A DNA stretch of 64,000 nt from positions 71,331 through 135,330 of the forward strand of contig CAYPKD010000001.1 in NCBI GenBank assembly GCA_964411255.1, read 5' to 3'. Under the pieces are notes generated by a model, which did no database searches, was not told the DNA's origin, and worked only from the letters and a program-made list of their open reading frames with translations. The first letter of the stretch is position 1; every line of letters starts with the position of its first letter. This stretch comes from an uncultured Gammaproteobacteria bacterium. GTDB taxonomy: Bacteria; Patescibacteriota; Patescibacteriia; UBA11705; DATKZF01. Both the position numbers and the translations under genes were made by a program. Below are positions 3,216-60,668 of this stretch, piece after piece.

Positions 3216-3222
3216 ATATTAT

Positions 3223-6669: not shown

Positions 6670-6782
6670 ACATTAAATTTTATTTTTGAAGCCTTTTACT
6701 GTATTCATCTTTTATCATTTTTTAAAAAATTTGTAAAGCATTAAAAATTACATATCGTTTTTTTCAAAACTAAGTTCATATC

Positions 6783-6980
6783 CAGCATCAGGGGTCTGGG
6801 GGGCTGATTGCCCCCAGCGTAATAATAAAACTTGATAGTCGCTTCGCATTTGAAGCCCCCCAGCACTTTTTGGTTACTTTTTGGTGCCAAAAAGTAACTT
6901 GGCGCAAGCCCAGAACCGTATGGTTCTGGGCTTGCCAACATTGCAAAGGGCAAAGCAGGCTTTGGCCTGCATTGTTAAAA
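6783..6980. repeat. GC-rich structured repeat element, family X copy 1 (possible ncRNA or palindromic mobile element)
   Basis: Shares ~150 nt with 36756-36930. It contains several perfect hairpins (GGGGGCUGAUUGCCCCC; GUUACUUUUUGG-UG-CCAAAAAGUAAC; GCAAGCCCAGAACC-GUAU-GGUUCUGGGCUUGC). The long hairpin differs between copies by compensatory pairs. Confidence 0.5.
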
Positions 6981-7000
6981 TCTAAATTAATTAATATTAA

Positions 7001-7021
7001 AACGTCCCCTATTGGGGACGT
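7001..7021 (-). terminator. intrinsic terminator after the HIT gene
   Basis: ACGUCCCC-UAUU/AAUA-GGGGACGU perfect hairpin, followed on the minus strand by UUUUAAUAUU. Confidence 0.6.
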
Positions 7022-7954: not shown

Positions 7955-9949
7955 TCACTGCCAAGAGGCAATATTCAGTCCTCCCATAAAATCAGGAGAA
8001 TATACAAACTTCTCAGTTATTACATTACCTAAGATGTCAAAAATTCGCAAATGCGGTTTGTTGTCTTCGCCAGGTACCACCGCAATATCTAAATTATTAT
8101 TCTTTAATAAATCAGTTGCCATTACTTTCACATTACCAGTAAAATTTTCTGAATATGCTAAAAAGCTTACGTTTGCCTGGCCTTTTTGATCAAATATTTT
8201 CACAATTGGTTTTCCAGCTATCGGTCCAGTAATGATTTCTGCAAAACCATCATGATTAATATCAGCTACATCAATATTTACTCCTTTAAAATCTCCACTG
8301 CTATAAGCTACAAATGAACTGATTAATTCACCTTTTTGGTTAAAAATCTTAACTTCATTATTTGATAAACTGGATACTATAATCTCATCTATTCCATTAT
8401 TATCTATGTCACCGCTTGAAATATTACAGCCGTTATTATCATTAAATGGAATAAATGAATTTATTTTTATTATTCTTTCATTAAAAAATAAAACCTCTGT
8501 TTGTCTGCCAGGGCCAGTGCAAACTAATAATTCCTGCGTTCCGTCTTCTTTGATAATCGAACCAAGATCAGATCCGCCTGTATATGCAGTGTTGAAAATA
8601 TAATTACTGGCCAATATTTTTTGATCTAATGATAATATTCTAAGCATTACAGGTGATCCTTCTGCTGGCACAACAGCATATTCAAGATTGCCGTCATTAT
8701 TAATATCTAAAACTTCAACAACCAATCCATCTGCAAATTCATTTTCAAACACAAAGATTTCATCATCTGGCTCAAGTTCCTGATTTAAAATTCTAAAACT
8801 TGCTATGCCATCGCCGGCCTGGCTGACAAGAATCTTTTGGGCAAACCTTGAAGCACTTTTACCATGCTTTAAAATAATATTTTTTAATGATTCATAAATA
8901 TTTAATCTTCCAGGACCCATATCACCTACTTCCATCCAAGGATCAAGCTCGATAGGATCTGCACCCAAAGCCAATGTCTCAATTATCTCTTCTACAGTTA
9001 AACTTCTATTAATTGATCGCATTAATGCAATAGATCCGCTTACAATAGCAGAAGAAAAAGACGTACCTTGCGTATCGTTTCCATAATATTCTTCCTCTGA
9101 TTCAGCCAACTGATGAATCTTCGTACTGAACATGTCTTCTCCTGGCGCTGCGATATCAATACAGCCTTCTCCATAATTACTAAAAACTGATGGATAATCA
9201 TCCACGTCTGTTGAAGCTACACCAATTACCAAAACTTCTGCTCCATCCTTATCATAGCAAACAGGATACATTCTCAAATCATCCAAATCAAATCCTTCAC
9301 CAAACCAGCCATTGCCAGCAGCAGCCACAATAATTACATTTGCCTCTTTGGCTTTATTTATTGCCTGTACTGCAGCAGTAGTGTCATCATAACCAGCTAA
9401 GCTTAAATTAATAACATCTGCGCCATTATCGATTGCATATTCAATTGCTTTAGCCACAGTATCAGAATCTCCATCACCCATTTCATCCAGTACTTTTAGC
9501 GGCATGATTTTTACCTTATTGGCAATACCCACGACACCAATATTATTTTCCATCGCAGCGATTATTCCAGAAACAAAAGTACCATGATGAATAATGTCAT
9601 CAAAATACCAATCTAAATCTGGGACTGGGTCAGGCCAGTCATAAATAAAATCCCAGCCATTAATATCATCTATATAACCATTATTATCATTATCAATTCC
9701 ATCTCCTGCAAATTCATCCATATTAACCCAAATATTTCCAGATAAATCCGGATGCGTAATATCAACGCCAGTATCTAATACAGCCACAATCACCTCTTCA
9801 CTACCTTTTGTGTAATCCCAGGCTTCAAATGCATTAATTTTTTCCAAATACCATTGTTTTTCAACGTATGGATCTGCGGTTTGAAGCAACCCTGTAATTG
9901 GCATTGAAAAAAATACAAGGATAACTAAAGTAAATAAAAATTTTTTCAT
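7955..9949 (-). CDS. secreted subtilisin-like serine protease (S8) with C-terminal FG-GAP/VCBS-like repeats
   Basis: Signal peptide MKKFLFTLVILVFF. Asp/His/Ser motifs VAVLDTGVD, HGTFVSGIIAA and GTSFSSAIVSGSIAL. The start was trimmed to Met35 of the track ORF. Confidence 0.85.
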   Translation of the reverse strand: MKKFLFTLVILVFFSMPITGLLQTADPYVEKQWYLEKINAFEAWDYTKGSEEVIVAVLDTGVDITHPDLSGNIWVNMDEFAGDGIDNDNNGYIDDINGWDFIYDWPDPVPDLDWYFDDIIHHGTFVSGIIAAMENNIGVVGIANKVKIMPLKVLDEMGDGDSDTVAKAIEYAIDNGADVINLSLAGYDDTTAAVQAINKAKEANVIIVAAAGNGWFGEGFDLDDLRMYPVCYDKDGAEVLVIGVASTDVDDYPSVFSNYGEGCIDIAAPGEDMFSTKIHQLAESEEEYYGNDTQGTSFSSAIVSGSIALMRSINRSLTVEEIIETLALGADPIELDPWMEVGDMGPGRLNIYESLKNIILKHGKSASRFAQKILVSQAGDGIASFRILNQELEPDDEIFVFENEFADGLVVEVLDINNDGNLEYAVVPAEGSPVMLRILSLDQKILASNYIFNTAYTGGSDLGSIIKEDGTQELLVCTGPGRQTEVLFFNERIIKINSFIPFNDNNGCNISSGDIDNNGIDEIIVSSLSNNEVKIFNQKGELISSFVAYSSGDFKGVNIDVADINHDGFAEIITGPIAGKPIVKIFDQKGQANVSFLAYSENFTGNVKVMATDLLKNNNLDIAVVPGEDNKPHLRIFDILGNVITEKFVYSPDFMGGLNIASWQ

Positions 9950-14132: not shown

Positions 14133-14345
14133 ATAAAAAAACCAAGACAAATAATGCTTGGGGCCCTTCCGGGTGGTTCCACCCAATTTCCAGCCGAAGC
14201 CAATATGTGGAGGGGTAGCTCTGCTGCCCCGACTTTGGCTGAGGCTGACTCTCATTCACTACTTCCAGCTTAGTTAGGTTTATACACCTAATTCCTCTGT
14301 GGAAGATTAGTTGGTAGCCAATCCAATCACCTTTAGTAGTGACTT
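14133..14345 (-). promoter_or_regulatory. structured GC-rich leader with a T-box-like motif and terminator upstream of dtd-thrS (candidate Thr T-box riboswitch); contains repeat family Y copy A at 14187-14248
   Basis: The minus-strand RNA contains AAAUUGGGUGGAACCACCCGG (compare the T-box consensus AAUUAGGGUGGNACCGCG). A hairpin CCAAG..CUUGG + U7 follows, ending 6 nt before the dtd ATG. Confidence 0.35.
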
Positions 14346-24557: not shown

Positions 24558-24619
24558 ATACTTTCAATCCCTCCATATTATTTCCTGTAATATCCCTAAC
24601 ATTCCGTAAATCCGTAACC

Positions 24620-25597
24620 TCAAACAAACCATTTCTCAATCTCAGCAAACTCCACTTTTTTTCTATCCATAATATATTTTTTCTTATCCAAAAACTTTTT
24701 TTTATTATGTCTGATTTCTTTTATTGCCCGCAAACTACCCTGTTCAGCAAAGAGAATATACAAAAATTTCTTTATTTCATATAATCTTATTCGCCAATTG
24801 AGTTTTGGTACATTTTTTAGTAATAAATAACGATGGTTTCTATAAGAATGGAAATTGGCAAATTTGGGCTTTTGCTTTCGGTTGCTTGCAACTTGTCGAT
24901 CAGTTAAATTTGCAGCTGGTCCGCTGACTGACCGGTCATGAAAAGCTATTGCCTTTGGCATTCGCCAGGATTGCCATCCTCTCCAGCGGAGTCGGTAAGC
25001 TAAATCAATATCTTCTTTATACATCCAAAAATCTTCATCAAAAAACTGTCCGTTTTCAACCACATCTTCCAATGCCTGCCGTCTATACATCGGCGCTGCT
25101 CCTGATACTCCAAAAATCTCTTGATCTTTATCAAATTGGCCATTATCCATTTCACCGCTGCCCAGATCAACAATGCGATGATTTTTATATATTGCCAAAC
25201 CTGCGCTATCTATATAATTTGTTTTTTGCTTATTTTGCCAGCTCATTAGCTTGCCAGTCACTGCCCCAGCCTGCGGGTGTCCATCCATAAAATTTGCCAA
25301 CTTTTCAATAAAACGTGATTCTAATATAATATCCTGATTTAACATTAATACATAGTCACTTTTTGTCCAGTGCACTGCCTGATTATGGGCTTTGGCAAAA
25401 CCATGATTTTCCCGATGCTCAACAATTTTTATATGAGGATATTTTTCCTTAATAACTTCAACTGTATTGTCTGTAGAAAAATTATCAATAATCAAAAGAC
25501 TATAGTCCTTATAGGTCTGGTTGAATAAGGCTTTTAAACAGTCTAAAACATATCTTTCACCATTCCAGGTGACTAAATTTACAGAGACTTTTGACAT
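24620..25597 (-). CDS. glycosyltransferase family 2 (rhamnosyltransferase-like)
   Basis: VNLVTWNGERYV...LLIIDNFSTDNT. Start taken at MSKVS. Confidence 0.8.
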   Translation of the reverse strand: MSKVSVNLVTWNGERYVLDCLKALFNQTYKDYSLLIIDNFSTDNTVEVIKEKYPHIKIVEHRENHGFAKAHNQAVHWTKSDYVLMLNQDIILESRFIEKLANFMDGHPQAGAVTGKLMSWQNKQKTNYIDSAGLAIYKNHRIVDLGSGEMDNGQFDKDQEIFGVSGAAPMYRRQALEDVVENGQFFDEDFWMYKEDIDLAYRLRWRGWQSWRMPKAIAFHDRSVSGPAANLTDRQVASNRKQKPKFANFHSYRNHRYLLLKNVPKLNWRIRLYEIKKFLYILFAEQGSLRAIKEIRHNKKKFLDKKKYIMDRKKVEFAEIEKWFV

Positions 25598-28449: not shown

Positions 28450-30804
28450 TTATTTAGCATTTAAAAATTTAATTACAGGTAATACTGAATCAGGATTCAA
28501 TGACATACTATCAATCTTATTTTCAACTAAAAACTTGGCGAAATCAGGAAAGTCTGATGGTGCTTGTCCGCAAATACCAATTTTTTTATTATTTTCTTTG
28601 GCAATTTTAATCACTTCAGCAATCATTTTTAAAACGCCAGCATCTTTTTCATTATAAATATGCTGAACAAACTCAGAATCGCGATCAACTCCCATCACAA
28701 ACTGAGTCAAATCATTAGATCCAATGCTAAAGCCGTCAAAAATCTTGACAAATTCTTCAGCCAGTAAAATATTGTTTGGAATTTCTACCATTACATAAAC
28801 CTCAACTCTCATTTTTTTTAATCCCTGCTCTTTAATTATTTGCAAAACCTTTTTTCCTTCTTCAATTGTGCGGCAAAACGGCACCATCACCTTAATATTG
28901 TTTAAGCCAAATTTTTTAACTGCCTTTTTAATTGCTTTGCATTCTAAAATAAAGGCTGGCTTAAATTTTGGATCATAATATCTGGATGCGCCCCGCCAGC
29001 CAAGCATTGGATTTGATTCCTCTGGCTCATACAATTCTCCACCGATCAGAGATCTGTATTCATTGGTTTTAAAATCTGAAAAGCGGACAATTACTTCTTT
29101 TGGATAAAATGCTGCAGCAATCTGTCCTATCCCTTCGGCAAGCTTATCAATAAAAAATTGTTTTTTGTTTTTATAATGCGGAGTAATTTTTTCAATCTTA
29201 TTTTTCAAACCCTGCGGTAACTTATCAAAATTAATTAAAGCCAATGGATGAATTTTTATATAATCACTAATTATAAACTCTTCACGAGCTAAGCCAACTC
29301 CTTTATTTGAAATAAATGATGAAGCAAATGCAATGTCAGGATTACCAATATTCATCATGATCTGAGTTCTTGGCATTTTCACTTTTTTCAAACTGACTTT
29401 AATTTTTCTAAATGGAAGTAACCCATTATAAACAAATCCTTCAACACCCTGGCTGCAATCAACAGTTACTTTTTTTCCTGTTTCCAAAACTTTTGTTGCC
29501 TTTTTTGTTCCAACCAATGCTGGGATTCCCAGTTCTCTGGAAACAATTGCTGCATGGCATGTTCTGCCTCCACTATCCGTAACAATGGCTGCAGCTTTTT
29601 TCATTGCTGGCTCCCAGGCCGGATCTGTCATCTTTGTAACCAAAACATCGCCCTGCTTTAAATTTTTCAACTGACTAACATTTTTAATTACTTTAACTGG
29701 CCCTTTTCCAATATTATTTCCAATAGCAATTCCATAAACCAAATGCCTAGATGGTTTTGACTTTAATCTGCATTGATATAAACCTTTTTTCGTTTTTGCT
29801 AAATGTACGGTTTCTGGCCTTGCCTGAACAATGTAAAGCTTGTTTTCAATCCCATCCTTTGCCCATTCAATGTCCATTGGCATTTTATATTGCTGTTCAA
29901 TAATTATCCCCCATTTTGTTAATTTCATTATTTCCGTATCGCTCAAAGCCAATTGATTTTTTTCTTTAATAGAGGTTCTCAAATTAACAGTCTTGTCTTT
30001 TTTATAAATCATTTTAAACTGCTTTTGACCAAGCTTCTTTTTTATAATTGATTTAAATCCTTTTTCCTGCGTTTGTTTGAATATAAAATACTCATCTGGA
30101 TCAATTCTGCCCTTAACCACGTTTTCTCCCAGACCAAGTCCAGCATTAATCATTATTAAATCCTTAAATCCACTTTCAGTTTCTAAAGTAAACATTACGC
30201 CAGCGCTGGCCTTGTCGCTTCGAACCATTTTTTGAATTCCTACAGAGACTAAGACTCCAGTCATTGGAAATCCTTTATCTTTTCGATAAGAAATCGCCCG
30301 GTCAGTATATAATGAAGCCATGCATTTTTTAATTTTTTCTAAAAGACTTTCAATTCCCTTAACATTTAAAAAAGATTCCAGCTGACCGGCAAAAGAAGCA
30401 GTTGGCAAATCTTCTGCTGTGGCAGAAGATCGAACTGCCACATCAGTTGCAGTATGTTTATATTGTTTGCTCAGTTTTTGATAAGCAATTTTAATTTCTT
30501 CTTTCATTTTTTCAGAAAATTCTCCTTGTTCAATCAATTCCCTGACAATCATGCCTCGCATTTGAAGATCTTGTACATTTCGTACATCAAGTCCTCTTAA
30601 AACTTTTTTTATTTTATTTGTTAATTTATTATATTTTAAAAATTCCTCATACCCTTTGGCAGTTAAAACAAAACCATTGGGCACAGGAATTCCCGCACTT
30701 TTTAACTTATTAAACATGTCACCAAGCATTGCGTTCTTTCCGCCAACCAAAGCCTGGTGCCGTTTTGTTATTTCATTAAAAAATTTAACGAATTTAGATT
30801 TCAT
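28450..30804 (-). CDS. ppsA: phosphoenolpyruvate synthase / PEP-utilizing enzyme
   Basis: ATP-grasp N-domain, phospho-histidine mobile domain TDSGGRTCHAAIVSRELGIPALVGT, and a PEP-utilizers TIM-barrel C-terminus. Confidence 0.85.
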   Translation of the reverse strand: MKSKFVKFFNEITKRHQALVGGKNAMLGDMFNKLKSAGIPVPNGFVLTAKGYEEFLKYNKLTNKIKKVLRGLDVRNVQDLQMRGMIVRELIEQGEFSEKMKEEIKIAYQKLSKQYKHTATDVAVRSSATAEDLPTASFAGQLESFLNVKGIESLLEKIKKCMASLYTDRAISYRKDKGFPMTGVLVSVGIQKMVRSDKASAGVMFTLETESGFKDLIMINAGLGLGENVVKGRIDPDEYFIFKQTQEKGFKSIIKKKLGQKQFKMIYKKDKTVNLRTSIKEKNQLALSDTEIMKLTKWGIIIEQQYKMPMDIEWAKDGIENKLYIVQARPETVHLAKTKKGLYQCRLKSKPSRHLVYGIAIGNNIGKGPVKVIKNVSQLKNLKQGDVLVTKMTDPAWEPAMKKAAAIVTDSGGRTCHAAIVSRELGIPALVGTKKATKVLETGKKVTVDCSQGVEGFVYNGLLPFRKIKVSLKKVKMPRTQIMMNIGNPDIAFASSFISNKGVGLAREEFIISDYIKIHPLALINFDKLPQGLKNKIEKITPHYKNKKQFFIDKLAEGIGQIAAAFYPKEVIVRFSDFKTNEYRSLIGGELYEPEESNPMLGWRGASRYYDPKFKPAFILECKAIKKAVKKFGLNNIKVMVPFCRTIEEGKKVLQIIKEQGLKKMRVEVYVMVEIPNNILLAEEFVKIFDGFSIGSNDLTQFVMGVDRDSEFVQHIYNEKDAGVLKMIAEVIKIAKENNKKIGICGQAPSDFPDFAKFLVENKIDSMSLNPDSVLPVIKFLNAK

Positions 30805-30816
30805 ATTTATTTTATT

Positions 30817-31233
30817 TTATCTTTTCGTTAAATGTTTGAATATAAATTTTTCTATAGCTAAAACTGTTTCATCTTTTAATTCTGCCGGACTTTGAGCAAT
30901 CCAAATTGTAAAATTATATAAGTCTTTTTCATCAACTTTAAGCCATTTATTATTTTTATATATGAATAATAGCAGCGTGGTGATTGCAATACGCTTATTA
31001 CCATTTTGAAAGGGATGATCTTTAATCATTAAATAAAAAAGAATCGCTGCCTTTTTTAGCAATCCCTTGTATAAAGTTTTGCCATGAAAAGATTGAAACG
31101 GCGTTATTAGGCAGCTTTCAAGAATATTTGGCCGGCGAGTGGAAAAATCCGGAATCGGTTCGCTAAATCCCAATTTTTCTTTAGCCACAGCAAATGAAAG
31201 ATATTCAACTTCTGCCAATGTAATTATTTTCAT
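30817..31233 (-). CDS. doc: Doc (death-on-curing) / Fic-fold toxin
   Basis: Doc motif HPFQNGNKRIAITT (HxFx(D/N)GNKR), ~138 aa. Confidence 0.75.
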   Translation of the reverse strand: MKIITLAEVEYLSFAVAKEKLGFSEPIPDFSTRRPNILESCLITPFQSFHGKTLYKGLLKKAAILFYLMIKDHPFQNGNKRIAITTLLLFIYKNNKWLKVDEKDLYNFTIWIAQSPAELKDETVLAIEKFIFKHLTKR

Positions 31234-31241
31234 ATATTACA

Positions 31242-31514
31242 TTACTCAGCAGATAATAATTTTAATGTTTCTCCGTATTCTTTAACTATTCTTCTCATCG
31301 CCTGATCAATTATTTTCTTTTCTTTTGCTTTTAATTCTGAACCATGAATAACTCCGAGTTCTCTTTTTGGAATAGCATAATTCCGGCCTATTTTAAACGC
31401 TTTAATTTGGCCTTTTTTAATTTTTTTAAATACAGCGACCCGGCTAATCTCTAATAAATCAGCCAATTCGCTAACCGAATAAAAATCGTTGTTTTTTGTA
31501 ATTTTCTTTGGCAT
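31242..31514 (-). CDS. HTH (excisionase/Xis-type) DNA-binding protein, putative antitoxin of Doc
   Basis: SVSELADLLEISRVAVFKKIKKGQIKAFKIGRNYAIPKREL helix-turn-helix. It sits immediately upstream of doc with an 8-nt gap. Confidence 0.6.
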   Translation of the reverse strand: MPKKITKNNDFYSVSELADLLEISRVAVFKKIKKGQIKAFKIGRNYAIPKRELGVIHGSELKAKEKKIIDQAMRRIVKEYGETLKLLSAE

Positions 31515-31637
31515 ATCTCTTGTTAACTTACTAATACAAGGTTAACATATGTTAACTTAACCGTCAAAATCGAATCCCCTTAGAAACCCAATTTTTAACC
31601 TTTTCGCCATAAAACAATAACTGTTTTTTTTGAAAAA

Positions 31638-31686
31638 GCCTTCTTTCCCCCTTAAGCCACCTTAAGCCTTCTCAAGCCCTCTTAAA
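31638..31686. repeat. GC-richer repeat family Z (cttaagcc/ctcaagccctct motif), copy 1
   Basis: gccttctttcccccttaagccaccttaagccttctcaagccctctt. Related copies lie at 39296-39364 (inverted) and 39811-39872. Confidence 0.45.
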
Positions 31687-31757
31687 TAATATTTTACCAT
31701 AATTTCATAAATCATGGAACATGGAACACATAGCATATAACAAAAAAGCACAGAACT

Positions 31758-32126
31758 TTATTCTGCGCTTTGGCAAACTAGACAATGCTCACAATTAGGC
31801 TTGGCTGTCTGATTACATTCATTAAGACACTCAACAAGTTGGTCGAATTCTTTGGACAACTCCTCGCAAACCTCAAGCTGCTGATGCTGTCTTTGAATGT
31901 GTACTGACATCCTATCTATCATGCTGCCTTCATCTATTCTGCCTGGATATAAGGGGGAACCATAGTTTTTTACTTCTTTTGCCATTGCTGATGATGATTC
32001 AATATTATCTCTAGAAAAAACATCAGGTTGTATAAATGGAGCAATGAGCAATATTGCAACAGCACCAACAAAAACTAACATAGAAATCACATATAATGCT
32101 CGAAGTGGACGATTATTATTTTCCAT
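31758..32126 (-). CDS. membrane-anchored Cys-rich small protein
   Basis: One N-terminal TM. The C-terminus is CEELSKEFDQLVECLNECNQTAKPNCEHCLVCQ. Confidence 0.5.
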   Translation of the reverse strand: MENNNRPLRALYVISMLVFVGAVAILLIAPFIQPDVFSRDNIESSSAMAKEVKNYGSPLYPGRIDEGSMIDRMSVHIQRQHQQLEVCEELSKEFDQLVECLNECNQTAKPNCEHCLVCQSAE

Positions 32127-32268
32127 GATGCCCTCCTTTGCTATTATTGAAAGAACACCCTAATTTAGCATTGTAATCCAATCTTGTCAAACGCTTTTAC
32201 TATGGAACACATAACATGTAATGAAAAACATTAAAATTTTATTTTTATTGCTTTATTTAATATTTTTT

Positions 32269-35200
32269 TTATTTTGCACTTTTGACTTCTCTCACCACCA
32301 CACACTTTTCAGTAATATTATACTCATTAAACTCATTTTTCTCATCCAGTTTTACTTTTTTTGCTTCTGAATATTTGTTTTGAAGATAATCTTCTAAATC
32401 TGGCCTATTGGTTAAAGCTCCTGAATCATGAACAGGTACTAATATTTTCTTTATGCCTCGCTTTTTTGCAATTTTTTCCATATAATCCAAAAATTTTTCA
32501 GTAAATTTTTCAGCTGACAAATTGGTAATTACATTTTGCTGAGGGTTAATGCCGCGCATGATCATTACTGGCTCACCTTCAACGGTTGATTCAATTATTA
32601 AGCAGCTACCAGCCAGACGCTGGTCTTTGCCTCTCGGATTTATAACAAATGCGCAGCCAATCATGTTAGGATTATTTTTCATAATATCATCCCTGGAAGT
32701 CCAGCAAGCATCGCCATAATATCCGCTTAATTCTGCCAACACATCTCTGGATGGCACAATCTCAATCTCAACCTTATTTCCTGATTCATGTTTTTGCAGC
32801 CTGGCCATTTCTTCTGACAATGCCCGGACTGATAAATTCCTAATCACTCTTTTTAGTTGCTTTTTATTTAAAGCTAGCCTGCTGCAGGTCTCTTCTTTTA
32901 TAATGTGATTTACAAATTCAATCATTTTTGAATAATTATCCCTGCTCAATTCTGGATTATTTAAAATATCTTGTATTGCTTCAAAAAATACTGGATTTGT
33001 CTGCATGCCTTCATAGATAACCAGCTGCCTAATGGCCGGTGAAGTAAAATTATTTTCTTTTTTTACTTTGTTTCTAATTTCAAAATCAATTAATAAATCT
33101 AAAAGATGTTTTCTGGTCTGTTCTTCTGAGTACAAAACAAAATCCCCATAAATGATTTTTTTTACTTCTACCAACAAGCCTTCAATTCTTACTAAATCAT
33201 AACGTAATTTTTGCACAATTTTTTCTCTTTTGTCTTCAGGCATTTTTTTCTCATGCATTTGCCTGAATTTTTCTTCAAGCCTGTCTCTTTCTTGCAAAAT
33301 ATAATCCTCTGCATAGAAATTTCCATAATCTTCTGCCTTTTTTATATCATCAATCAATTTTTTAAATCTTTGCTCTGAATCTGGAGAAAATTCAAACTCT
33401 TCCTGCCTTTTTAATCTTTCAACAAACATAAAATCTGACTCATATTCCTTTGGCATTGGCTTAATCTCACCAGCCTCTTTATCCCTTTTAATTCCTTCCA
33501 AAATCTCTTTAAAATCTTTTGACCGCTGCCATTCTGAAAATTCAAAATTGCTGGCATTTTTTAATATTTCTACAACCAAAGGATTTGAAATATCAATTCT
33601 TTCATAATCAAATTCTCCATTAAGGCTAAAAGCGGAAATTATTTCATCCATTTTTTTCTCAAATTCTTTTAAGCCTTGCTTTCCAGTATTAGTTACTCCT
33701 AATTTTTTCAATTCTGCTGTTAAAGGCTTTTGATTTAATAATAATTTGTAATTTTCAAAAATAACTGCTGAATCATATCTGCCAAATTGTTTAATATAAT
33801 CTCTAAAAAGCTTAACCTCTTCTTTTTTAACAATATCAATCTTATTATCCTTAATTAATGTTTCAAAAAATTTATTTATTCTACTAAAATTGTAGCCTTT
33901 GGCCAGCTCAGTTAAATCCAGGCCTAAATATGCTCTTATCTGTTTTTCATTCATATGCGCAAAAGCATATTTTAAAAAGCCATCATACTTTTCATTCTTA
34001 TTAATAAAATCAACAATCTGCTTCTTTAATTTATTAATTCTGTTATAACCCATTTGAATATCATCAACTTCTGATAAATAGGCAAATACTCTTTCAGATT
34101 TTTCGGTTTTCTCCTCAATAGATTGATTTATTTTTTTCAATTGATCAAATGCTTCAGTTATGGTTTGTTTGTTTTGCAATGCGAAAACTATTAGAAAAAT
34201 TTTTTCTTGTTGGTCTAGCTGCGTATATGGAAATTTTTTTCTAGTATATTCATAATTATACCAGTGTCTTCCAGATGATTTGTTTTTTTGCTTTTTAATG
34301 AGCTGATCCAATTCTTCCCACAGCTCTTTAGCCTTTGGCAAATCTTTTTCTTTAATATAAATCAATAATTGAAGATAATCAATATTTGATTTGATATATT
34401 CTAAAGCTTTTTTAGGATCAGAACCCAGTAATTTTCCAAAAAGCGCCCATTTTTCTTCTGGCATTTTTTCAAACATTGATTCAAATTGAACCACTCTGCT
34501 TTCTCCTGCATAATCTATCATTGCGTTCCATGCTTTCGAGCCCATTTTCAATCTAGCTCTGTGTATTTTTTTCATAATCTCCTGCTGTTCTTCTTCAGTA
34601 TAATCTATATCAAATGCATAATATGGAAGTGAATGACCTTTAATAACCTGAAGCAAAGACTTTTCGTTTTTCAGCCATGAAAAAGGTTTGATTCCTCTTT
34701 TTATTAAATCCCTAAAATATAACTGCTCTTTTCTTTTATCTTTAATCTGAAAACTATTGTAATTTCTAGCTAAAATATATGGATCCTGCTCCAGTATTTT
34801 ATCGCACAAATATATTTTAAGATTATCATCGAGTTTTATTTCTTTAATATTATAATTGGTAAATATTCTAATATCAGTATCAATTAATCGCTTTAGATAT
34901 TCATTTTTTTTACCTTTGCTTATTGGCAAATCCTTGAAAAAATATAAAATTGTATTTAAATTATCCAAATCCAAATCATCTGGGCCATATTTTTCTATTG
35001 ATATATCAATATATTCCAAAACAGTATTTATTTCATCTTCTGTTTTTGGTTTTGGTCTTAAGTCAAAATGAACTACTACATCTTCACTGTCAGCTTTTCT
35101 TTTTTCAAGCTGTTCTTCAAGAAACAACATTTGAACATCATCATCTGGTTCAAAATCAGCATCATCTGATGGAAATTCTAAATCAAAATTTAAACGAGCA

Positions 35201-36675
35201 GCTAAAAACTTAATATCAGCGTGAAAACTTTCCAAGCCTTTGTCTGCAAAATATTTTTCTGCTTCCTGTTTTTGCCATGTCCAACCATATTTTTCTTTGT
35301 ACTTTTTCAATTTGCTCTCATCATTTTTGATACTGGTGATCAATTGATCAATTTTCTGAACAAAATTTTTAATTGCCTGCTTTTTCACTAATTTAATTAT
35401 CTCTTCTAATTCTGGGAATTGACTAAAGTCCAAACCAGAGATATTATTCAACAGTTCAGCATCACTTAATTTTTGCTTTTCTATTGCTGTTAGCAAATTT
35501 TCTTCAAACTCCTGTCTTTGCTTTTTGGATATTACAATGCCTGCGCTTGCCTGCTCATATGCAGCAATAAAATCAAACGGATCTTTTTTAGATACTTTTT
35601 CTAAAAATTCAATTCTATCATTTTGCTTTAAGCCCAACTCTTCAGAATAAACCAAAGTTTCTCTGGGCAGCTTTTCAAATAATTTGCCCAGAATTTCTTT
35701 TCTGTTTGAAAAATCTTTAAATTCTATACTTTGACTTTGCATTACCATTACTAAAGGATCTTTTTGGGCAATCTCAAGCATTAATTTTTCTGCCTGCTTA
35801 TCTTCCAAATTAAATTCATCAAAATGATTAAGCACATAATCAGCTCCAACTATGTCTATCATCTTTTTCATTTTTTTAAGTTTTTCAGCCCTTGGTGTCT
35901 GATCTACCTTTTGCATTATTTGCCGCTTTATTCCGCTCTTCCCTTTTATTAATGCACCGCTTTGTAAAAAATCTGCTATTTTTTCATCCTTTTTCAAAAA
36001 AGGAATGGTTTGCTCAAAAAAATATTTCAATACTTTTGTTTTCTCAATATTATAATACGTTCGTTCTCCTAAGCCGTTTCTTATCTCTATAGCCCTATCT
36101 TTGGGAAGATAATATGTATCGTTGTTAAGATATTCAAAAATACGTTTAATCTGATTAGCTGCTAATATACGACCATTACGATTAGAAATATTTAATCTGT
36201 TTTCTCTATAAATATGATCATAATACCTTGCCTCAATATCCTTTAATTGCTCTCTTGCTTGTTCAGTCATATCAATTCTATCAATATATTTTCTAAAAAA
36301 TGTAATTGCTTCTGTTGAGCTAAAATCTATAGAATGCCTGATCGTTTCAAACAGCTTTTCTTTGTTTCTATCATCCAAAAATGCTTCTCTTGAGTATGCC
36401 AGGGCATTTATTACTCTTTCGATTTCTTTTTCTAGCCTATCATATTCTACTTCATTATCTGCTTTACTTTTTACAGTAAATTTTTCAGGCATTTTTTTTG
36501 GATCATAATAATCTGCAAAATCCTCAATCTGGTCAAAAATTTTCAAATCCTCTATTAACTGATCAAAATCATGCTCTTTTTTTTCTAAAGGCTTTTGTTC
36601 CCTCACTTTAGGTTTTTTAGGAGGTTTTTCAGCTGGCAATCCACCGCCAAAAACTTGTAATACTCTGTCTACCAT
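32269..36675 (-). CDS. giant (1468 aa) mostly alpha-helical K/E-rich protein with a distinct C-terminal ~200-aa Cys-containing domain, unknown function
   Basis: Single uninterrupted ORF with no TM or signal peptide. The C-terminal GYYGDACWTSRDD...GCAFVINP...GSCLIIEST block looks globular. Confidence 0.7.
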   Translation of the reverse strand: MVDRVLQVFGGGLPAEKPPKKPKVREQKPLEKKEHDFDQLIEDLKIFDQIEDFADYYDPKKMPEKFTVKSKADNEVEYDRLEKEIERVINALAYSREAFLDDRNKEKLFETIRHSIDFSSTEAITFFRKYIDRIDMTEQAREQLKDIEARYYDHIYRENRLNISNRNGRILAANQIKRIFEYLNNDTYYLPKDRAIEIRNGLGERTYYNIEKTKVLKYFFEQTIPFLKKDEKIADFLQSGALIKGKSGIKRQIMQKVDQTPRAEKLKKMKKMIDIVGADYVLNHFDEFNLEDKQAEKLMLEIAQKDPLVMVMQSQSIEFKDFSNRKEILGKLFEKLPRETLVYSEELGLKQNDRIEFLEKVSKKDPFDFIAAYEQASAGIVISKKQRQEFEENLLTAIEKQKLSDAELLNNISGLDFSQFPELEEIIKLVKKQAIKNFVQKIDQLITSIKNDESKLKKYKEKYGWTWQKQEAEKYFADKGLESFHADIKFLAARLNFDLEFPSDDADFEPDDDVQMLFLEEQLEKRKADSEDVVVHFDLRPKPKTEDEINTVLEYIDISIEKYGPDDLDLDNLNTILYFFKDLPISKGKKNEYLKRLIDTDIRIFTNYNIKEIKLDDNLKIYLCDKILEQDPYILARNYNSFQIKDKRKEQLYFRDLIKRGIKPFSWLKNEKSLLQVIKGHSLPYYAFDIDYTEEEQQEIMKKIHRARLKMGSKAWNAMIDYAGESRVVQFESMFEKMPEEKWALFGKLLGSDPKKALEYIKSNIDYLQLLIYIKEKDLPKAKELWEELDQLIKKQKNKSSGRHWYNYEYTRKKFPYTQLDQQEKIFLIVFALQNKQTITEAFDQLKKINQSIEEKTEKSERVFAYLSEVDDIQMGYNRINKLKKQIVDFINKNEKYDGFLKYAFAHMNEKQIRAYLGLDLTELAKGYNFSRINKFFETLIKDNKIDIVKKEEVKLFRDYIKQFGRYDSAVIFENYKLLLNQKPLTAELKKLGVTNTGKQGLKEFEKKMDEIISAFSLNGEFDYERIDISNPLVVEILKNASNFEFSEWQRSKDFKEILEGIKRDKEAGEIKPMPKEYESDFMFVERLKRQEEFEFSPDSEQRFKKLIDDIKKAEDYGNFYAEDYILQERDRLEEKFRQMHEKKMPEDKREKIVQKLRYDLVRIEGLLVEVKKIIYGDFVLYSEEQTRKHLLDLLIDFEIRNKVKKENNFTSPAIRQLVIYEGMQTNPVFFEAIQDILNNPELSRDNYSKMIEFVNHIIKEETCSRLALNKKQLKRVIRNLSVRALSEEMARLQKHESGNKVEIEIVPSRDVLAELSGYYGDACWTSRDDIMKNNPNMIGCAFVINPRGKDQRLAGSCLIIESTVEGEPVMIMRGINPQQNVITNLSAEKFTEKFLDYMEKIAKKRGIKKILVPVHDSGALTNRPDLEDYLQNKYSEAKKVKLDEKNEFNEYNITEKCVVVREVKSAK

Positions 36676-36755
36676 ATTTTGTAAAATTCACTGCTATTTT
36701 AGCATTTTTTTGGTAAAAAATAAAATTTACCATAAACAAAACACCATTCATCTAT

Positions 36756-36930
36756 AGCATCGGGGGTCTGGGGGGCTGATTGCCCCCGGCGCGAAAAATA
36801 AACTTAATCACTGCTTCGCATTTGAAGCCCCCCAGTGCTTTTTGCCTACTTTTTGGCAGCAAAAAGTAGGTCGGCGCAAGCCGAAATTGGTGAGAATAAA
36901 ATCAGGCCCTCAGGCCTGTATTGTAAAAAA
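36756..36930. repeat. GC-rich structured repeat element, family X copy 2
   Basis: Aligns with 6783-6980. The hairpin CCUACUUUUUGG-CA-GCAAAAAGUAGG carries compensatory substitutions relative to copy 1. Confidence 0.5.
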
Positions 36931-36952
36931 TTACATTAGCAAACAAATTTGA

Positions 36953-37417
36953 TTATAACTTTTCTATTTTTCCCACTGGCATCCGATCATGGCCAGTTAA
37001 TTTTGTATAAAAACCTGAAGACGGCTCAGTTAAAATATAAACTCGCTTTTTTCCATCTTGCTCAACCAATACTGCGTCAATCCCTTTTGGAGTAGCAAAC
37101 CATTTTTTCTTTTCAAAACCCTTCGTAGCTGGCACATGAACTTTTTTTGGTTTAAGCCAATTCCATCGGCCAGCAGCCAAACTTTCTGATCGACACCATC
37201 CAGTATGAGGCATTTTTATTTTTTTATCATCTCTGTTTCCCCATTCATATAAATTTACCTCTCCGTTTTCTTCAATAGGTACGCACGGCTTTTTTTGCCA
37301 AAAGAAAAACGAAATCTCATCGCCTTTTTTGTATTTTTCAAGCTCAGCATCAGTAAAACATTTTTTCACCTGAGCTTTTTTTAATTTTTCATAATAAATT
37401 GCAAATCCTGCGCACAT
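36953..37417 (-). CDS. hypothetical protein, possibly SRAP (SOS-response-associated peptidase)-like
   Basis: N-terminus MCAGFAIY (compare the SRAP MCGRFA Cys2 nucleophile) and C-terminal HDRMPV. It is shorter than canonical SRAP, so the assignment is tentative. Confidence 0.35.
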   Translation of the reverse strand: MCAGFAIYYEKLKKAQVKKCFTDAELEKYKKGDEISFFFWQKKPCVPIEENGEVNLYEWGNRDDKKIKMPHTGWCRSESLAAGRWNWLKPKKVHVPATKGFEKKKWFATPKGIDAVLVEQDGKKRVYILTEPSSGFYTKLTGHDRMPVGKIEKL

Positions 37418-37442
37418 AATAATTAGAAATTAGAAATTGGGA

Positions 37443-38882
37443 TTAACCAACCTCCTTAATCTCAACAAAGTTAACATTACCACTGCTGCCCACTGGCTCA
37501 CCAGCTACTAAAATCATTTTTTCTCCAGGCTTTATGAATTTTTCTCTTTTCAAATATGAAAGCGATCTTTCAATCAACTCTTCAACACTTTTACAGGTCG
37601 GAATAACAAACGGGATTGAACCCCAGGTTAAAATCAATTGCCTTTGTACTCTGTCATTATCGCAAGAGATTAAAATTGGCAACTCTGGCCTATACCTAGA
37701 AACCATCCGGCCAGTATAACCAGATAAAGAAGCGACCAAGATCACTTTAGCATCAACATGCTCTACCAGCATTCTAGCCACTCGGGCGATTGCCTTGTCA
37801 GTAGTTTCTAATTCCTTAACTTTTGTTTTCAAAACCAAATCATCATAAGTTGACTCCTCAGTCTTTTCAACAATTTTAGCCATGGTTTCAACTGTTTTAA
37901 TAGGGTATTTACCAGTCGCTGTTTCTCCTGATAACATCACCGCATCTGCATGGTCAATGACAGCATTAGCTACATCACTTACCTCAGCTCTGGTTGGCCG
38001 AGGATTTCTGATCATTGAATCTAGCATTTGGGTGGCCACAATTACCGGTTTGGCTGCTACTAATCCTTTATCAATCATTTCCTTTTGTCTTAACGGAACT
38101 TCCTCAGCTGGCAGCTCCACTCCCAAATCGCCTCTGGCCACCATTACTGCGTCTGTTGCATCTAAAATTTCCGGAAAATTTTTAATCGCTTCTTGCCTTT
38201 CAATTTTTACAATTATCTTAATTGGCTCTTGATCTTTTAATTTCAGTTGCTTTTCATAATCTTTTATTAAATAACGCAAATCATGAACATCTTTAGCAGA
38301 ACTAACAAATGATAAAGCTACAAAATCTACATTATTTTTTATTCCAAAAAATAAATCTTTTTTATCTTTTTCAGTTAAGGCTGAAATGCTTAAAGAAACA
38401 CCTGGCAAATTTATACCTTTATCTGAAAAAAGCTTGCCCCCGTTTAAAACTTTGCAATGAATGTCCTGGCCTTCAACTTTTTTTACTACAAAATCGAGCA
38501 AACCATCCACCAGCATGATGTGATCTCCGATTTTTACATCTTCATGTAAAAGGGAATAATCAATTGGAATTATCTTACTGGTGCCTTGTTTAACCTTTTT
38601 AGTAGTGACAATAACATTGCTGCCAGTTTTAACATCAGAGCCACGCTTAGGCATATTACCCACTCTTATTTTCGGCCCTTGCAAATCCTGAATGATACCA
38701 ATAGTCTTTTGTTCTGACTTAGCTACCTTTCTGATGTTACTAATCATTTTTTTATGATATGCATGAGTGCCATGAGAAAAATTAAGCCTGGCCAGGTTCA
38801 TTCCTGAATTGACCATTTTTTTTATTGTTTCAATTCTTTCTGTTGCCGGACCTAAAGTACAAATTATCTTTGTCCTTCTCAT
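37443..38882 (-). CDS. pyk: pyruvate kinase
   Basis: MRRTKIICTLGPA... is full-length PK-barrel plus C-terminal domain. Confidence 0.9.
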   Translation of the reverse strand: MRRTKIICTLGPATERIETIKKMVNSGMNLARLNFSHGTHAYHKKMISNIRKVAKSEQKTIGIIQDLQGPKIRVGNMPKRGSDVKTGSNVIVTTKKVKQGTSKIIPIDYSLLHEDVKIGDHIMLVDGLLDFVVKKVEGQDIHCKVLNGGKLFSDKGINLPGVSLSISALTEKDKKDLFFGIKNNVDFVALSFVSSAKDVHDLRYLIKDYEKQLKLKDQEPIKIIVKIERQEAIKNFPEILDATDAVMVARGDLGVELPAEEVPLRQKEMIDKGLVAAKPVIVATQMLDSMIRNPRPTRAEVSDVANAVIDHADAVMLSGETATGKYPIKTVETMAKIVEKTEESTYDDLVLKTKVKELETTDKAIARVARMLVEHVDAKVILVASLSGYTGRMVSRYRPELPILISCDNDRVQRQLILTWGSIPFVIPTCKSVEELIERSLSYLKREKFIKPGEKMILVAGEPVGSSGNVNFVEIKEVG

Positions 38883-39810: not shown

Positions 39811-39872
39811 GCCCTCTCTTCCTATTTACATCTCAACCTCTCAAGCCTTCTTCTGCCCTCTCAAGCCCTCTA
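39811..39872. repeat. repeat family Z, right arm flanking the four-helix-bundle gene
   Basis: gccctctcttcc...ctctcaagccttcttctgccctctcaagccctcta. Confidence 0.45.
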
Positions 39873-42619: not shown

Positions 42620-42728
42620 TACTGCCATCCTTTCCAAACAATATTGTAATAAAATAAATTATCATAATATTTTGGAAATGTCAATAATAAAAAAAGAGCA
42701 TTTTATAGACATGCTCAGGTCATTTGAG

Positions 42729-43349: not shown

Positions 43350-43418
43350 TCCTCCTTAAAATATAATGATTTTGTAATAAACAGCGACCTATTCACTGTT
43401 AAAAAAGATCAATAAATC

Positions 43419-43447
43419 ATCATAGCACAAAAATTGTAAAAAGTCAA
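43419..43447 (-). promoter_or_regulatory. sigma70-type promoter TTGACT-17-TATGAT
   Basis: Reverse complement reads TTGACT ttttacaatttttgtgc TATGAT. Confidence 0.5.
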
Positions 43448-43522
43448 TAATAAAAACAGAACCTATATTCTGTTCTTATGGCTGTGCCATCCGAAGCTCT
43501 GAGTGTAACGAAGAGCCAAGGA

Positions 43523-54043: not shown

Positions 54044-57000
54044 TTACTGTTCGCTCCAGGGCAAATTAACATCCTTTGCCTTTTCATGGTGCTCAAAGTC
54101 ATCACCAGAAATATCTTCTTTTATCTCTTGAGCGGTCTCTTCTCCATGCCATTCATGCGGTAAATTTCGCACAGGTCTTCTTTTAACTTCTGGCTCTACT
54201 TTTTTATCAAGTTTTGGCTCTAGAGCTTTTGGCGTTCCATGTTTTTCCATTAAAATATTTTGAGTTAATGCTTCGCCTTTTTCCTTATTCTGTTCAATTA
54301 AATCACTCCTAAAATTTTCGTAACCATTCTTTTCACATGTAATATAATAAACATTTTTCCCTACTAAAAAGCTATAACGACCATGTGGATCTGTAACTTG
54401 GGTTTCTAATAACCGATTATATTTATTGTCATATAATCGAACAACAGTTCTGCCAAGAGGCTTTTTATTTGTTTTGTCAGCCACAATACCCCAGCCTTTG
54501 GGCTTCTTTGGCACAGCCAACCTCTTAAATAATGAGTACAATAATAAATGAATAACTAATAATGCAAAGAATAAAGCGCTTGGTTTTATTAAAAATACTA
54601 TAAAAGTAGCAATTGGCCCTAATATGGCCATAACCTTTTGAATTTTTCGCAACAAGTAAACCGTTAAAATTTTTGAACTTGGCTTTGGCTTTTTATCAGC
54701 ATCTAAAGGTATATTTGGTGTTATTACAGATTTCTCATCAACTTGAATACTTTCTCCATGGTATATATCAATGTAAAATAAATCTTCTTTTTGATCAGCT
54801 AAAATCTGAGTTGGGAAAACATACCCTTTTTTAAATACTTTAATATAATAACTGCCAGGCTTCACTACAAAAGAAAATCTGCCTTCTTTATCCGTTACCT
54901 TTGTTTGAATCAACTTATTATTAACTACGTTATATAATCTCAATATTGCCAAATCCACCGGCTGCTTTGTTATTGAATCGTATACTACCCCGTATTTCTT
55001 TCTTTTCTTTTTAAAAATAACAAGCAAAGGTTCAGAAAAAAGGAAAAATAAATATGGTAAAAGTCCTGCTAACGAAGCAATTGATAAAATATTAAACGCA
55101 GTCACTGCAGCAATTGCCGGTGTTCCGAACTTGTCTGTTGCTTCTTCAACGTCAGGATTATTAAATATATTTTCAATTATAAATGATTCATTAATACTCT
55201 TTATAAAATCTGATTCAACAATCCTGTTTCTTAAATCTTTTAAAGCCTCAACAATTTCTGCTGCTGCGACAATTTCAATTTCCTCAGTCTGTTCATTATT
55301 ATCCAATTCATTTTCACAATCTGGATCTGCCAAATCGACTAAACCATCGCCGTCGTTATCCAATCCATCTGAACATTGCGGTAGGATCAATTCATCAGTC
55401 TCATCATCATCTTCAGTACTTCTGCAGCCAGGATCTGATGGATAATCAACCAAACCGTCATTGTCATTATCAATATCATCTGAACATTGATAGATAACTA
55501 TTTCATCTATCTCATCATCATCTTCCAAACTTTCACAACCAGGATCTGTAGGCCAGTCTGTTAACCCGTCATTATCATTATCAATGCCATCAGAGCATTG
55601 AGTGATTAATTCTTCTTCAACTTCATTATTATCTTCTGGGCTATCGCAACCAGGATCTGCCGGATAATCTATAAAACCGTCATCATCATTGTCTACACCA
55701 TCTGAACACTGGGTCACAGGCGCTTCATCTTCTTCACTATTATCCTGCTCACTAGAACAGCCAGGATCTGCCGGATAATCTACTAAACCATCATTATCAT
55801 TATCAGTATCATCTGAGCATTGTGGCACGAACTCAACATTAAACTCATTATTGTCTTCAGGGTATGAGCAGCCCGGATCTGCGGGAAAATCGATTAAGCC
55901 ATCGTTATCATTATCAATATTATCTGAACAAGCTGGCAAAACTTCGTCTATTTCATTATCATCTTGGTCACTATCACATCCAGGATCTGCAGGGTAATCA
56001 ATTAGGCTGTCATTATCATTATCTATACCATCTGAACATTGCGGTAAAATCACCACATCAGCCTCGTCATTATCCTGATCGCTATCACAACCAGGGTCTG
56101 CTGGATAATCAACCAAACTGTCATCGTCATTATCAATGCCATCTGAACACTGAGGTAAAGCACTTGAAGTGGTAAAAATAAACAAATCAGTAAAATCAGT
56201 TTCTTCACCATCACCATTTCTGGCCTTTACCCTAAACGAATAATCAGTTGATGGAGACAATCCTATATTGGTCCAGCCAGTATCTGTAATCCAGTCAGAA
56301 TTTTGGCCAGTATCAATATTTTCAAACCAAAGAGTTGTCAAACCATCTCCTAAGTTTGGTAAACTTCCATTTGCCTCAATGGTAATAAAATCACTTCCAG
56401 CATCAACTAAAACCAATTCATCTGGTTTATTTATTAAAGTATATTTCGAAGCACTTTCTGACCAATCAGACTGATCAGTATTATTTTGTGCCATTACCTG
56501 AAAAGTATACTCAGTATTTTCAGATAAACCTGCAATATTTTTCCCAAGCAAACTGCCCCAGCTATTATATGATTGCCATTCTTCAGTCATATCCAGAGTG
56601 CCATCAGACTGCAAATAAAGTCCGGTTGTTGTTTCATTTATCAAATATAAAACATCATCCTCATTACCATTAGGATCTAAAACAATATTTAATATTGACG
56701 GTGATATGGCCAGCAAAGTTGGCGCGCCAGGAACATACAGCACAGCATCTGACAATGTAGCAAAAGTTTGATCAGCTGATTCAGCAGGATTAAAATTACT
56801 GTCGCGCACCCAAATTTTAAAATGATATTCAGTGTCAGGAATTAAATTAGCCAAATCTACACTGTGTGATGTTAAAAAATTATTATTATCAACCTGAGAT
56901 CCATAACTATCTGTTTCACCATAATAAAGTATAGACGTTGCCAATTCATCTGTTTCCCAAGTAATGGTAACTGAAGTGGTAGTAATATTAATTACCTGAA

Positions 57001-58842: not shown

Positions 58843-58905
58843 TATCCAGCAGAAGCCATAACGTGGAGAGGTAACTTCTGCTGCCCCGACTTTGGCTGAG
58901 GCTGA
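58843..58905. repeat. GC-rich repeat family Y copy B (immediately 3' of argS)
   Basis: tatccagcagaagccataacgtggagaggtaacttctgctgccccgactttggctgaggctga is ~85% identical to 14187-14248. Confidence 0.55.
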
Positions 58906-60613: not shown

Positions 60614-60668
60614 AAATTTAATAAATATTTTCCGTAATATCCGTAAAATTCCGTAAATCTGTAAACTC

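Follow-up and report, generated by a model that had tools for sequence, protein, structure and literature searches.

A structured, non-coding repeat at gene ends in a patescibacterial lineage that probably behaves as a non-autonomous mobile element

This report concerns a short repeat that lies between a 154-aa gene and a very large, 1468-aa gene in a 64,000-nt stretch of patescibacterial DNA (contig CAYPKD010000001.1 of assembly GCA_964411255.1, positions 71,331 to 135,330; hereafter the window). The window has a GC content of 34%, against which the repeat stands out with 43–52%, and its genes lie on the minus strand except for a few short, unassigned open reading frames (ORFs). They include housekeeping genes (pyruvate kinase, rfbB and other rhamnose-pathway genes, several aminoacyl-tRNA synthetases, DnaE, PPDK and glycosyltransferases) as well as several very large ORFans; for pyruvate kinase and DnaJ, the closest named homologs belong to Patescibacteria, mostly Falkowbacteria. 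A preliminary description had proposed that a repeat at 36756-36930 (copy 2) is the same element, in the same orientation and the same relative position, as one at 6783-6980 (copy 1). Our analysis bears this out: the two are ~80–82% identical, and each lies in the gap from the stop codon of a minus-strand gene to the start of its successor: copy 1 follows the HIT gene (stop at 7046) and precedes rfbB (start at 6669), and copy 2 follows the 154-aa gene (stop at 36953) and precedes the 1468-aa gene (start at 36675). The interval given for copy 2 marks the right place but is slightly short, with conservation in the family extending from ~36730 to ~36949; these outer limits were deduced from flank alignments of the family together with the duplication-defined insert ends of two copies outside the window (L030b and L045, described below). 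The features at the two loci are as follows.

36730-36949, plus strand: copy 2, full inferred extent (core matched by the covariance model, 36748-36923)
6758-7000, plus strand: copy 1 (core 6776-6974), upstream of rfbB and downstream of the HIT gene
36953-37417, minus strand: 154-aa gene, its 3' end abutted by copy 2; the ortholog at locus L034 is 81% identical
32269-36675, minus strand: 1468-aa ORFan gene, downstream of copy 2, without a family hit and absent from relatives
7002-7021, minus strand: separate predicted intrinsic terminator of the HIT gene, just outside copy 1 (terminator scan)

Aligned on the same strand with MAFFT, window positions 6760-7000 and 36730-36950 showed 82% mean column identity, and a repeat finder paired 6765-6910 with 36737-36882 at 80% identity (its family D3). 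Two GC-rich blocks, GGGGTCTGGGGGGCTGATTGCCCCC (25 nt) and GCTTCGCATTTGAAGCCCCCCAG (23 nt), are identical in copies 1 and 2 and occur exactly twice each in the window, where none would be expected (100 shuffles). A covariance model of the family matched copy 2 with 193.5 bits (36748-36923, E 1e-48) and copy 1 with 188.7 bits (6776-6974). Run with filters off, the model revealed no third copy inside the 64-kb window; the next-best hits, at 19–23 bits, were the palindromic P4 hairpins of both copies read on the opposite strand, and all else scored below 15 bits. The two terminal hairpins quoted in the preliminary description were also recovered, CAGGCC-CTCA-GGCCTG at 36903-36918 in copy 2 and GCAGGC-TTTG-GCCTGC at 6955-6970 in copy 1.

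With the copies outside the window included, the family comprises 14 distinct copies of ~105–250 bp and ~45–55% GC in at least four related genomes, at sites and densities that differ between genomes and with the highest density in the population from which the window derives: copies 1 and 2 (win1 and win2), L021b, L030a, L030b, L030c, L024, L025a, L025b, L026, L027, L028, L034 and L045. Five of these (L024 to L028) came from a pattern scan of JGI metagenomes; L029 from the same scan was rejected as a chance match, as were 16 loci from a two-helix pattern scan of species-representative genomes, all in GC-rich genomes and scoring at most 21 bits with the covariance model. Used as a protein query, a spurious ORF predicted within the element returned three clusters, which pointed to L030/L031 in the sample that also yielded the window; there, three copies lie within 10.5 kb, upstream of hrcA, dnaJ and cysS. 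The window and L030 likely belong to the same genome, given the shared sample, the same GC content and parallel identities to relatives. Four further copies were added by the covariance model: L025b, a diverged second copy in L025; L034 (GCA_049319825.1), from a relative whose pyruvate kinase is 75% identical; L045, whose DnaJ is 67% identical; and L021b (L021 7557-7755), which belongs to the same contig population as the window and lies ~300–500 nt to the left of its position 1, between a 287-aa gene and a convergent PEGA-domain gene, with an extra hairpin module as in copy 1. Lookups with window proteins additionally showed that contigs of four independent assemblies stop within the element, as is expected because the repeat is multi-copy.

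No copy was present in L032 and L036, two 21-kb syntenic loci of relatives, and phage, plasmid and viral collections (viral contigs searched with two patterns) returned no match. Rfam gave no match at gathering level in the window or L030, and a permissive search of the window and three copies at E-values up to 10 produced only noise below half the gathering score. ARAGORN detected no tRNA or tmRNA in the element, despite the resemblance of GGGGCTGATT to the 5' end of tmRNA. A coding role was rejected, the short ORFs being broken or inconsistent between copies.

The anatomy of the element, in copy 2 coordinates except for one module of copy 1, is as follows.

From ~36730, ~28 nt, plus strand: 5' lead, loosely conserved
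36762-36766 (GGGGG) with 36829-36833 (CCCCC), plus strand: P1, which closes a GC-rich three-way junction spanning 36762-36833
36770-36787, plus strand: P2 hairpin, GGGGGGC-TGATT-GCCCCC
36788-36812, plus strand: P2-P3 linker, variable
36813-36828, plus strand: P3 hairpin, GCTTC-GCATTT-GAAGC
36844-36871, plus strand: P4 hairpin, 12 bp, A/U-rich, GCCTACTTTTTG-GCAG-CAAAAAGTAGGT
36872-36883, plus strand: P5 hairpin, CGGC-GCAA-GCCG, with a GNRA loop on this strand
36884-36902, plus strand: spacer, variable
36903-36918, minus strand: terminal hairpin, CAGGCC-TGAG-GGCCTG in the minus-strand reading (loop CTCA on the plus strand), followed by AUUUUAUUCU
36919-36949, plus strand: 3' end and tail, with a conserved TATTG and an A-rich tail that abuts the stop codon of the 154-aa gene
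6904-6935, plus strand: optional hairpin module of copy 1, GCAAGCCCAGAACC-GTAT-GGTTCTGGGCTTGC, missing in copy 2

This model, including its three-way junction, is based on minimum-free-energy folds of both strands, a consensus fold and pair counts. Folding of either strand exceeds that of shuffled sequences (z ~ -5). In an alignment of 14 distinct sequences, pairing is intact in 96% of the cells of the five helices, and 8 pairs have changed on both sides, values that were reached by none of 500 shuffles and approached by no slid register, with the caveat that the alignment had been fitted to the covariance model. Compensatory changes are visible in individual stems: P4 reads GGTTAC..GTAACT or GCCTAC..GTAGGT depending on the copy, and in L034 and L025b one A-U pair has been lost from both of its arms; the P5 stem covaries (CGGC/GCCG, TGGC/GCCA, CGCC/GGCG) around a conserved loop; and a U-A pair of P3 has become C-G in L034. 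Conservation is accordingly blockwise, with stem blocks 83–92% identical between copies, those of the three-way junction 87–92%, compared to 61% in the P2-P3 linker.

The periphery of the element varies between copies. Equivalents of the terminal hairpin are found in copy 1, L021b, L030a, L030b and L030c, with minus-strand loops CAAA, GAAA, UUCG and UGAG, and an additional 26-nt segment after P5, which forms a 32-nt hairpin together with adjoining bases, is carried by copy 1, L030b and L021b. A 24-nt hairpin is inserted into the P4 loop of L026 and L027, both P4 and P5 are missing from L024, and a long (CCTGCC)n palindrome replaces P3 in L045. The A-rich tail lies, in L030b, within the duplication-defined insert. 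Read on the minus strand, P5 is followed by the U-rich arm of P4, and this combination scanned as terminator-like.

All placed copies lie between genes or reach no further into a gene than its last codons, and the flanking genes are functionally unrelated (rfbB, an ORFan, hrcA, dnaJ, cysS, and genes for Band_7, NTPase, FecR-like, PMT_2, cupredoxin and pilin/CorA proteins). Nine copies sit in tandem-gene contexts, where the minus strand of the element is sense to the flanking genes in seven (copies 1 and 2, L030a, L030b, L030c, L025b and L034) and the plus strand in two (L027 and L045). L021b and L024 lie between convergent genes and so have no downstream start, and three copies are cut by contig ends.

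This distribution bears on the suggestion in the preliminary description that the recurring context reflects a cis-regulatory or transcription-unit-boundary function rather than random insertion, and that all copies might lie 70–110 nt upstream of gene starts. The distance from element to start codon ranges from 25 to 219 nt, and position and orientation both vary, with two convergent copies lacking a downstream start and two tandem copies reversed. At hrcA, a canonical TTGACA-17-TATACT promoter and a CIRCE operator (TTAGCACTC-N9-GACTGCTAA at L030 1085-1165, the right arm differing from the GAGTGCTAA consensus at two positions) are located between L030a and the gene, and at cysS element and gene are likewise separated by an extended -10 promoter, also found conserved in a relative; the element is therefore not part of these leaders or 5' untranslated regions. 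The copies also do not occupy 5' untranslated regions of related genes at a conserved distance and orientation, as a leader or riboswitch would. A fixed upstream regulatory role is thus refuted by the distribution, the intervening promoters, the unrelated neighbours and the orthologous sites that are free of the element (see below). A role at transcription-unit boundaries is still plausible on sequence grounds, given the placement at gene ends, the gene-sense terminator-like hairpins and four loci with no other terminator. As for insertion, the recurrence at gene boundaries is real, but the pattern fits a mobile repeat that is tolerated only at gene ends.

With its promoter and CIRCE operator directly downstream of L030a, hrcA appears to be under conventional heat-shock regulation that is independent of the repeat. 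A specific link between the element and the giant 1468-aa gene is not supported: what lies downstream of the L034 copy is an unrelated gene, and the giant gene itself matched no family or defence system (its protein gave no hit in Pfam, NCBIfam or PADLOC). The element says nothing specific about how that gene is regulated. The leader of the 1468-aa gene contains, outside the repeat, a match resembling the SAM-II riboswitch (36689-36736, minus strand; 20.4 bits compared to a gathering score of 44, E 0.18), which is most likely a chance match in AT-rich sequence.

Terminator-like signals are concentrated on the minus strand of the element. In a simple scan of 11 full copies, hairpin-plus-U-tract modules numbered 14 on the minus strand compared to 3 on the plus strand, and 9 of these 11 copies have at least one on the minus strand. 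At the level of pattern, these modules correspond to intrinsic terminators, in that a GC-rich hairpin is followed by a U tract in the sense of the upstream gene. According to the terminator scan, the terminal hairpin of copy 2 is the only terminator-like site after the 154-aa gene, and the element's own hairpin is also the sole candidate after the upstream stop codon in L030c, L034 and L025b. At five other loci (copy 1, L030a, L030b, L024 and L045), a separate canonical terminator lies beside the element.

Other indications of a transcribed strand are contradictory, as G-U/A-C counts and loop motifs point both ways. G-U exceed A-C combinations by 18 to 3 when the plus strand is read, although 11 of the 18 G-U cells belong to a single terminal pair and P1 favours the minus strand; the conserved GCAA of P5 forms a GNRA loop on the plus strand only, while the loops of the terminal hairpin (GAAA, UUCG, CAAA, UGAG) read better on the minus strand. 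No promoter is conserved at the ends of the element on either strand: a TATAAAT-like box at some minus-strand ends is not conserved, and promoter scans disagree between copies.

Comparison with related genomes provided evidence for movement. In L037, whose DnaJ is 91% identical and which covers two of the three L030 sites, the yacP-dnaJ spacer (53 nt) and the spacer between a 172-aa gene and cysS (163 nt) lack the element, where L030 is filled at both, and in L041, L043 and L045 all three sites are empty. At L030b, a stretch of at least 57 nt that comprises the terminator of the upstream gene and the cysS -10 region is found on either side of the element, compared to a single occurrence in the empty site of L037; the left one has kept the hairpin and the right one the promoter. 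In L045, a 31-nt terminator, TAAAAGACAGCCnAAnCGGCTGTTTTTTTGT, is found on both sides of the element with 29 of 31 positions identical, a score attained by none of 110 control flank pairs. In L034, a relic of the last codons of the upstream 156-aa gene (..PHDRMPVGE..), at least 24 nt long, persists on the far side of the element, matching the present end of the gene at 19 of 24 nt and the end of its ortholog in the window at 18 of 20 nt (z ~5–7 compared to shuffles).

The copy in L034 and copy 2 follow orthologous genes (156 and 154 aa, respectively, 81% identical); because their junctions differ and the downstream genes are unrelated, with the gene-end relic in L034 only, they are probably independent insertions at a favoured kind of site and not one ancient, conserved element.

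The surrounding interval from pyruvate kinase to PPDK (28450-38882) is hypervariable among relatives. In the window it holds the 154-aa gene, the repeat, the 1468-aa ORFan, a 122-aa gene, and HTH_17 and Fic genes, the Fic protein matching the PADLOC candidate system PDC-S23. In L034, the position of the ORFan is taken by an unrelated 242-aa gene, and the whole gene set is missing from L032 and L036.

Taken together, we consider it probable that the family is a lineage-restricted, non-coding, hairpin-rich dispersed repeat, which behaves as a non-autonomous mobile element of the MITE (miniature inverted-repeat transposable element), BOX or SPRITE kind and sometimes serves as a terminator. Such an element would be moved by an enzyme encoded elsewhere, which might make widely staggered cuts in the target or duplicate it by another route, and which may recognise the conserved GC-rich P1-P2-P3 junction and the P4 hairpin instead of terminal inverted repeats. 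The conserved stems would then be needed for propagation, and insertions elsewhere than at terminators or the 3' ends of genes may not persist. In an inserted element, one or two hairpin-plus-U-tract modules would be supplied by the strand that mostly runs in the sense of the upstream gene, terminating transcription or backing up termination; at some loci, among them copy 2 behind the 154-aa gene, the element has probably been co-opted as the terminator of the gene upstream. A bolder version of this model, which we regard as speculative and unlikely, is that an unrecognised integration mechanism of the candidate phyla radiation (CPR) targets intrinsic terminators or gene 3' ends and duplicates the whole target, from tens of bases up to a spacer with terminator and promoter, with the three-way junction acting as recognition structure in RNA or single-stranded DNA; the element would thereby create new transcription-unit boundaries. 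The parts of a duplicated target could then divide their roles, as may have happened in L030b, where one keeps the terminator and the other the promoter.

Several observations weigh against a mobile repeat that doubles as a terminator. Genes for a transposase, integrase or reverse transcriptase were found neither in the 64-kb window nor beside any copy, and terminal inverted repeats are lacking: the duplication-defined ends of L030b and L045 are not reverse complements of each other, and 5' lead and 3' tail have no inverted similarity. Flank-versus-flank alignment detected no significant duplication in 8 of 11 full copies. Even the most similar two copies reach only 91% identity and are not near-identical, which gives no hint of recent movement. 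The empty sites might also stem from loss, for instance through recombination between flanking duplications, and that L030 and the window come from one genome is likely rather than certain. Finally, the 7 of 9 orientation bias in tandem contexts is not significant (two-sided binomial p ~0.18), and the terminator role is a prediction from pattern matching.

Of the other explanations, a boundary element selected by the host for terminating or insulating transcription units, with mobility incidental or long past, would account for the gene-sense hairpin and U tract in 9 of 11 copies, for the four loci at which the element provides the only terminator candidate, for the blockwise conservation of stems and for the presence of a copy after the orthologous 154/156-aa genes in both the window genome and L034. 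We nevertheless think it rather unlikely, as the element is redundant with an independent canonical terminator at five loci, close relatives do without it at the same sites, and the tandem copies of L027 and L045 are oriented so as not to terminate; moreover, the P1-P3 junction, its most conserved part, is unneeded for a terminator, and the insertions of L034 and the window after the 154-aa gene differ in position, suggesting independent events. The five helices with compensatory changes could instead point to a multi-copy family of structured small RNA genes acting in trans, transcribed from the plus strand and thus antisense to the flanking genes in the window. The conserved GNRA loop on the covarying P5 stem, the 18 to 3 excess of G-U, a tandem-GA internal-loop module in the P4 insertion of L026 and L027 that is sensible on the plus strand only, and one promoter-like site ending at 36726, just upstream of copy 2, all agree with this, but no upstream promoter is conserved (the scan found none for copy 1, and 5' flanks cannot be aligned beyond ~28 nt), there is no plus-strand terminator, and much of the G-U excess comes from one terminal pair, P1 even favouring the other strand. 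Whole modules may be absent (P4-P5 in L024, P3 in L045), and target duplications and empty sites are unexpected for conserved small RNA genes, which makes this reading distinctly improbable.

That the element is the degenerate end of something larger, such as a non-coding end or guide-RNA scaffold of an insertion sequence (IS) or retroelement that has lost its coding part, would fit its structured, asymmetric and non-coding nature without inverted termini, its modularity, its restriction to one lineage, and the long, variable target duplications known from IS1634 and IS1549 (PMC2266710). We hold this to be very unlikely, since none of the 14 copies lies beside a transposase-like ORF, phage, plasmid and viral collections gave no match, Rfam gave no hit to families of the HEARO or omega-RNA type, and the copies have similar full lengths instead of forming a nested truncation series. 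Least probable of all, and in our judgement hardly credible, is a cis-regulatory element (leader, operator or UP-like) controlling the next gene downstream, here the 1468-aa gene. The seven tandem-array copies located upstream of the next gene in the same relative orientation (copies 1 and 2, L030a-c, L025b and L034) would suit such a role, and L028, cut by a contig end, is consistent with it; against it stand the variable spacing to start codons, the hrcA and cysS promoters downstream of the element, the convergent copies L021b and L024, the opposite orientation of L027 and L045, and neighbour genes that are unrelated and whose orthologs in relatives do without the element. The boundary element, the plus-strand small RNA family and the relic end are each less well supported than the mobile repeat.

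REP and BIME sequences are structured extragenic repeats at gene 3' ends, which can stabilise mRNA or terminate transcription, and which lack classical terminal inverted repeats and target-site duplications; they are mobilised in trans by RAYT (TnpA-REP) transposases that recognise their hairpins. Single REPs are imperfect palindromes of 20–40 nt with a conserved 5' tetranucleotide, often arranged in inverted pairs. The present family resembles them as a structured repeat at gene 3' ends without classical terminal inverted repeats, but it is a ~200-nt multi-hairpin unit with no inverted-pair organisation and no RAYT-like ORF near its copies, and membership was rejected on the grounds of unit size and the missing ORF. 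We also rejected an integron attC site or other site-specific recombination site, as the copies lie 3–30 kb apart among housekeeping genes with no integrase.

Closer parallels exist among the dispersed repeats of other bacteria. The pneumococcal SPRITE consists of a terminator-like duplex with a U-rich tract, occurs near the 3' ends of coding sequences and between convergent genes, has been proposed to be co-opted as a terminator, and has no known autonomous partner (PMC3049150). Like SPRITE and BOX, our family is made up of small, non-coding, multi-copy interspersed repeats of one species group that are sparser in relatives and are predicted to form stable stem-loops, and the variable P4 and P6 inserts recall the optional internal modules of BOX. 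No sequence similarity links the element to SPRITE or BOX, and its conserved three-way junction of GC-rich stems sets it apart from both; it is GC-rich relative to its host, unlike the AT-rich SPRITE and RUP, and lacks even the short AAAA/TTTT termini of SPRITE. Long flanking target duplications, as seen here, could not be assessed for SPRITE.

With MITEs such as Correia/CREE, ERIC and RUP (PMC10969869), the family shares its size, its non-coding, multi-copy intergenic nature, presence/absence polymorphism, strong structure and potential terminator or processing sites. It differs in lacking the terminal inverted repeats that define MITEs and in having no identified related IS; its target duplications (31 nt, at least 57 nt and at least 24 nt) are long and variable compared to the short, fixed 2–10 bp of MITEs, and no short target-site duplications were found. 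The family is thus MITE-like in being small, non-coding, multi-copy and polymorphic, and unlike MITEs in its termini and target duplications. Direct target repeats of long and variable length, 8–514 bp, are made by IS1634 and IS1549 (PMC2266710), the only well-known prokaryotic transposons to do so, and the 24 to at least 57 nt observed in three copies of our family match this range. These IS also occur in small, AT-rich genomes (Mycoplasma), but they are autonomous elements of 1.5–2 kb with a DDE transposase and inverted ends, none of which was seen here, so that the insertion signature is the only link.

The window also contains repeats that are distinct from this family. Repeated units at 3210-3283, 4091-4164, 5096-5134, 42646-42697 and 43411-43460 resemble near-consensus promoters on the minus strand (TTGACTTTT ... 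TATAAT) and precede small genes of unknown function; the first two share 80% identity over a length of 74 nt. A perfect 29-nt GC-rich repeat, TCTGCTGCCCCGACTTTGGCTGAGGCTGA, belongs to a different family and is found just upstream of a D-Tyr-tRNA deacylase domain and just downstream of the gene for arginyl-tRNA synthetase (ArgRS), its two copies being at 14220-14248 and 58877-58905. Purine-rich tandem decamers (minus strand GGCTTAAGGN) occupy the leaders of the HTH_17 and 23S_rRNA_IVP genes (31638-31692 and 39837-39871), and a comparable purine-rich tandem is present in the cysS leader of L030 (~8230-8290). A 43-nt repeat with internal TTACGGA-like direct repeats lies at 24579-24621 and 60626-60668 (86% identical), in the spacers that precede the genes for a GT2 glycosyltransferase and for ArgRS, and at least six tandem repeats of 111 nt (37 aa) are located at 55279-56155 within the gene for a 1038-aa surface protein with fn3 and CarboxypepD_reg domains.

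Genomes of Patescibacteria are tiny and thought to be poor in mobile elements, and a full-text literature search found no description of small interspersed repeats in this group. If the long target duplications are the true signature of insertion, the mechanism by which the family integrates would be an unusual one. In practice, the family interrupts metagenome assemblies from these organisms, marks recent insertions or deletions between close populations and may supply ready-made terminator hairpins at gene ends, which makes it useful for assembling and comparing these genomes.

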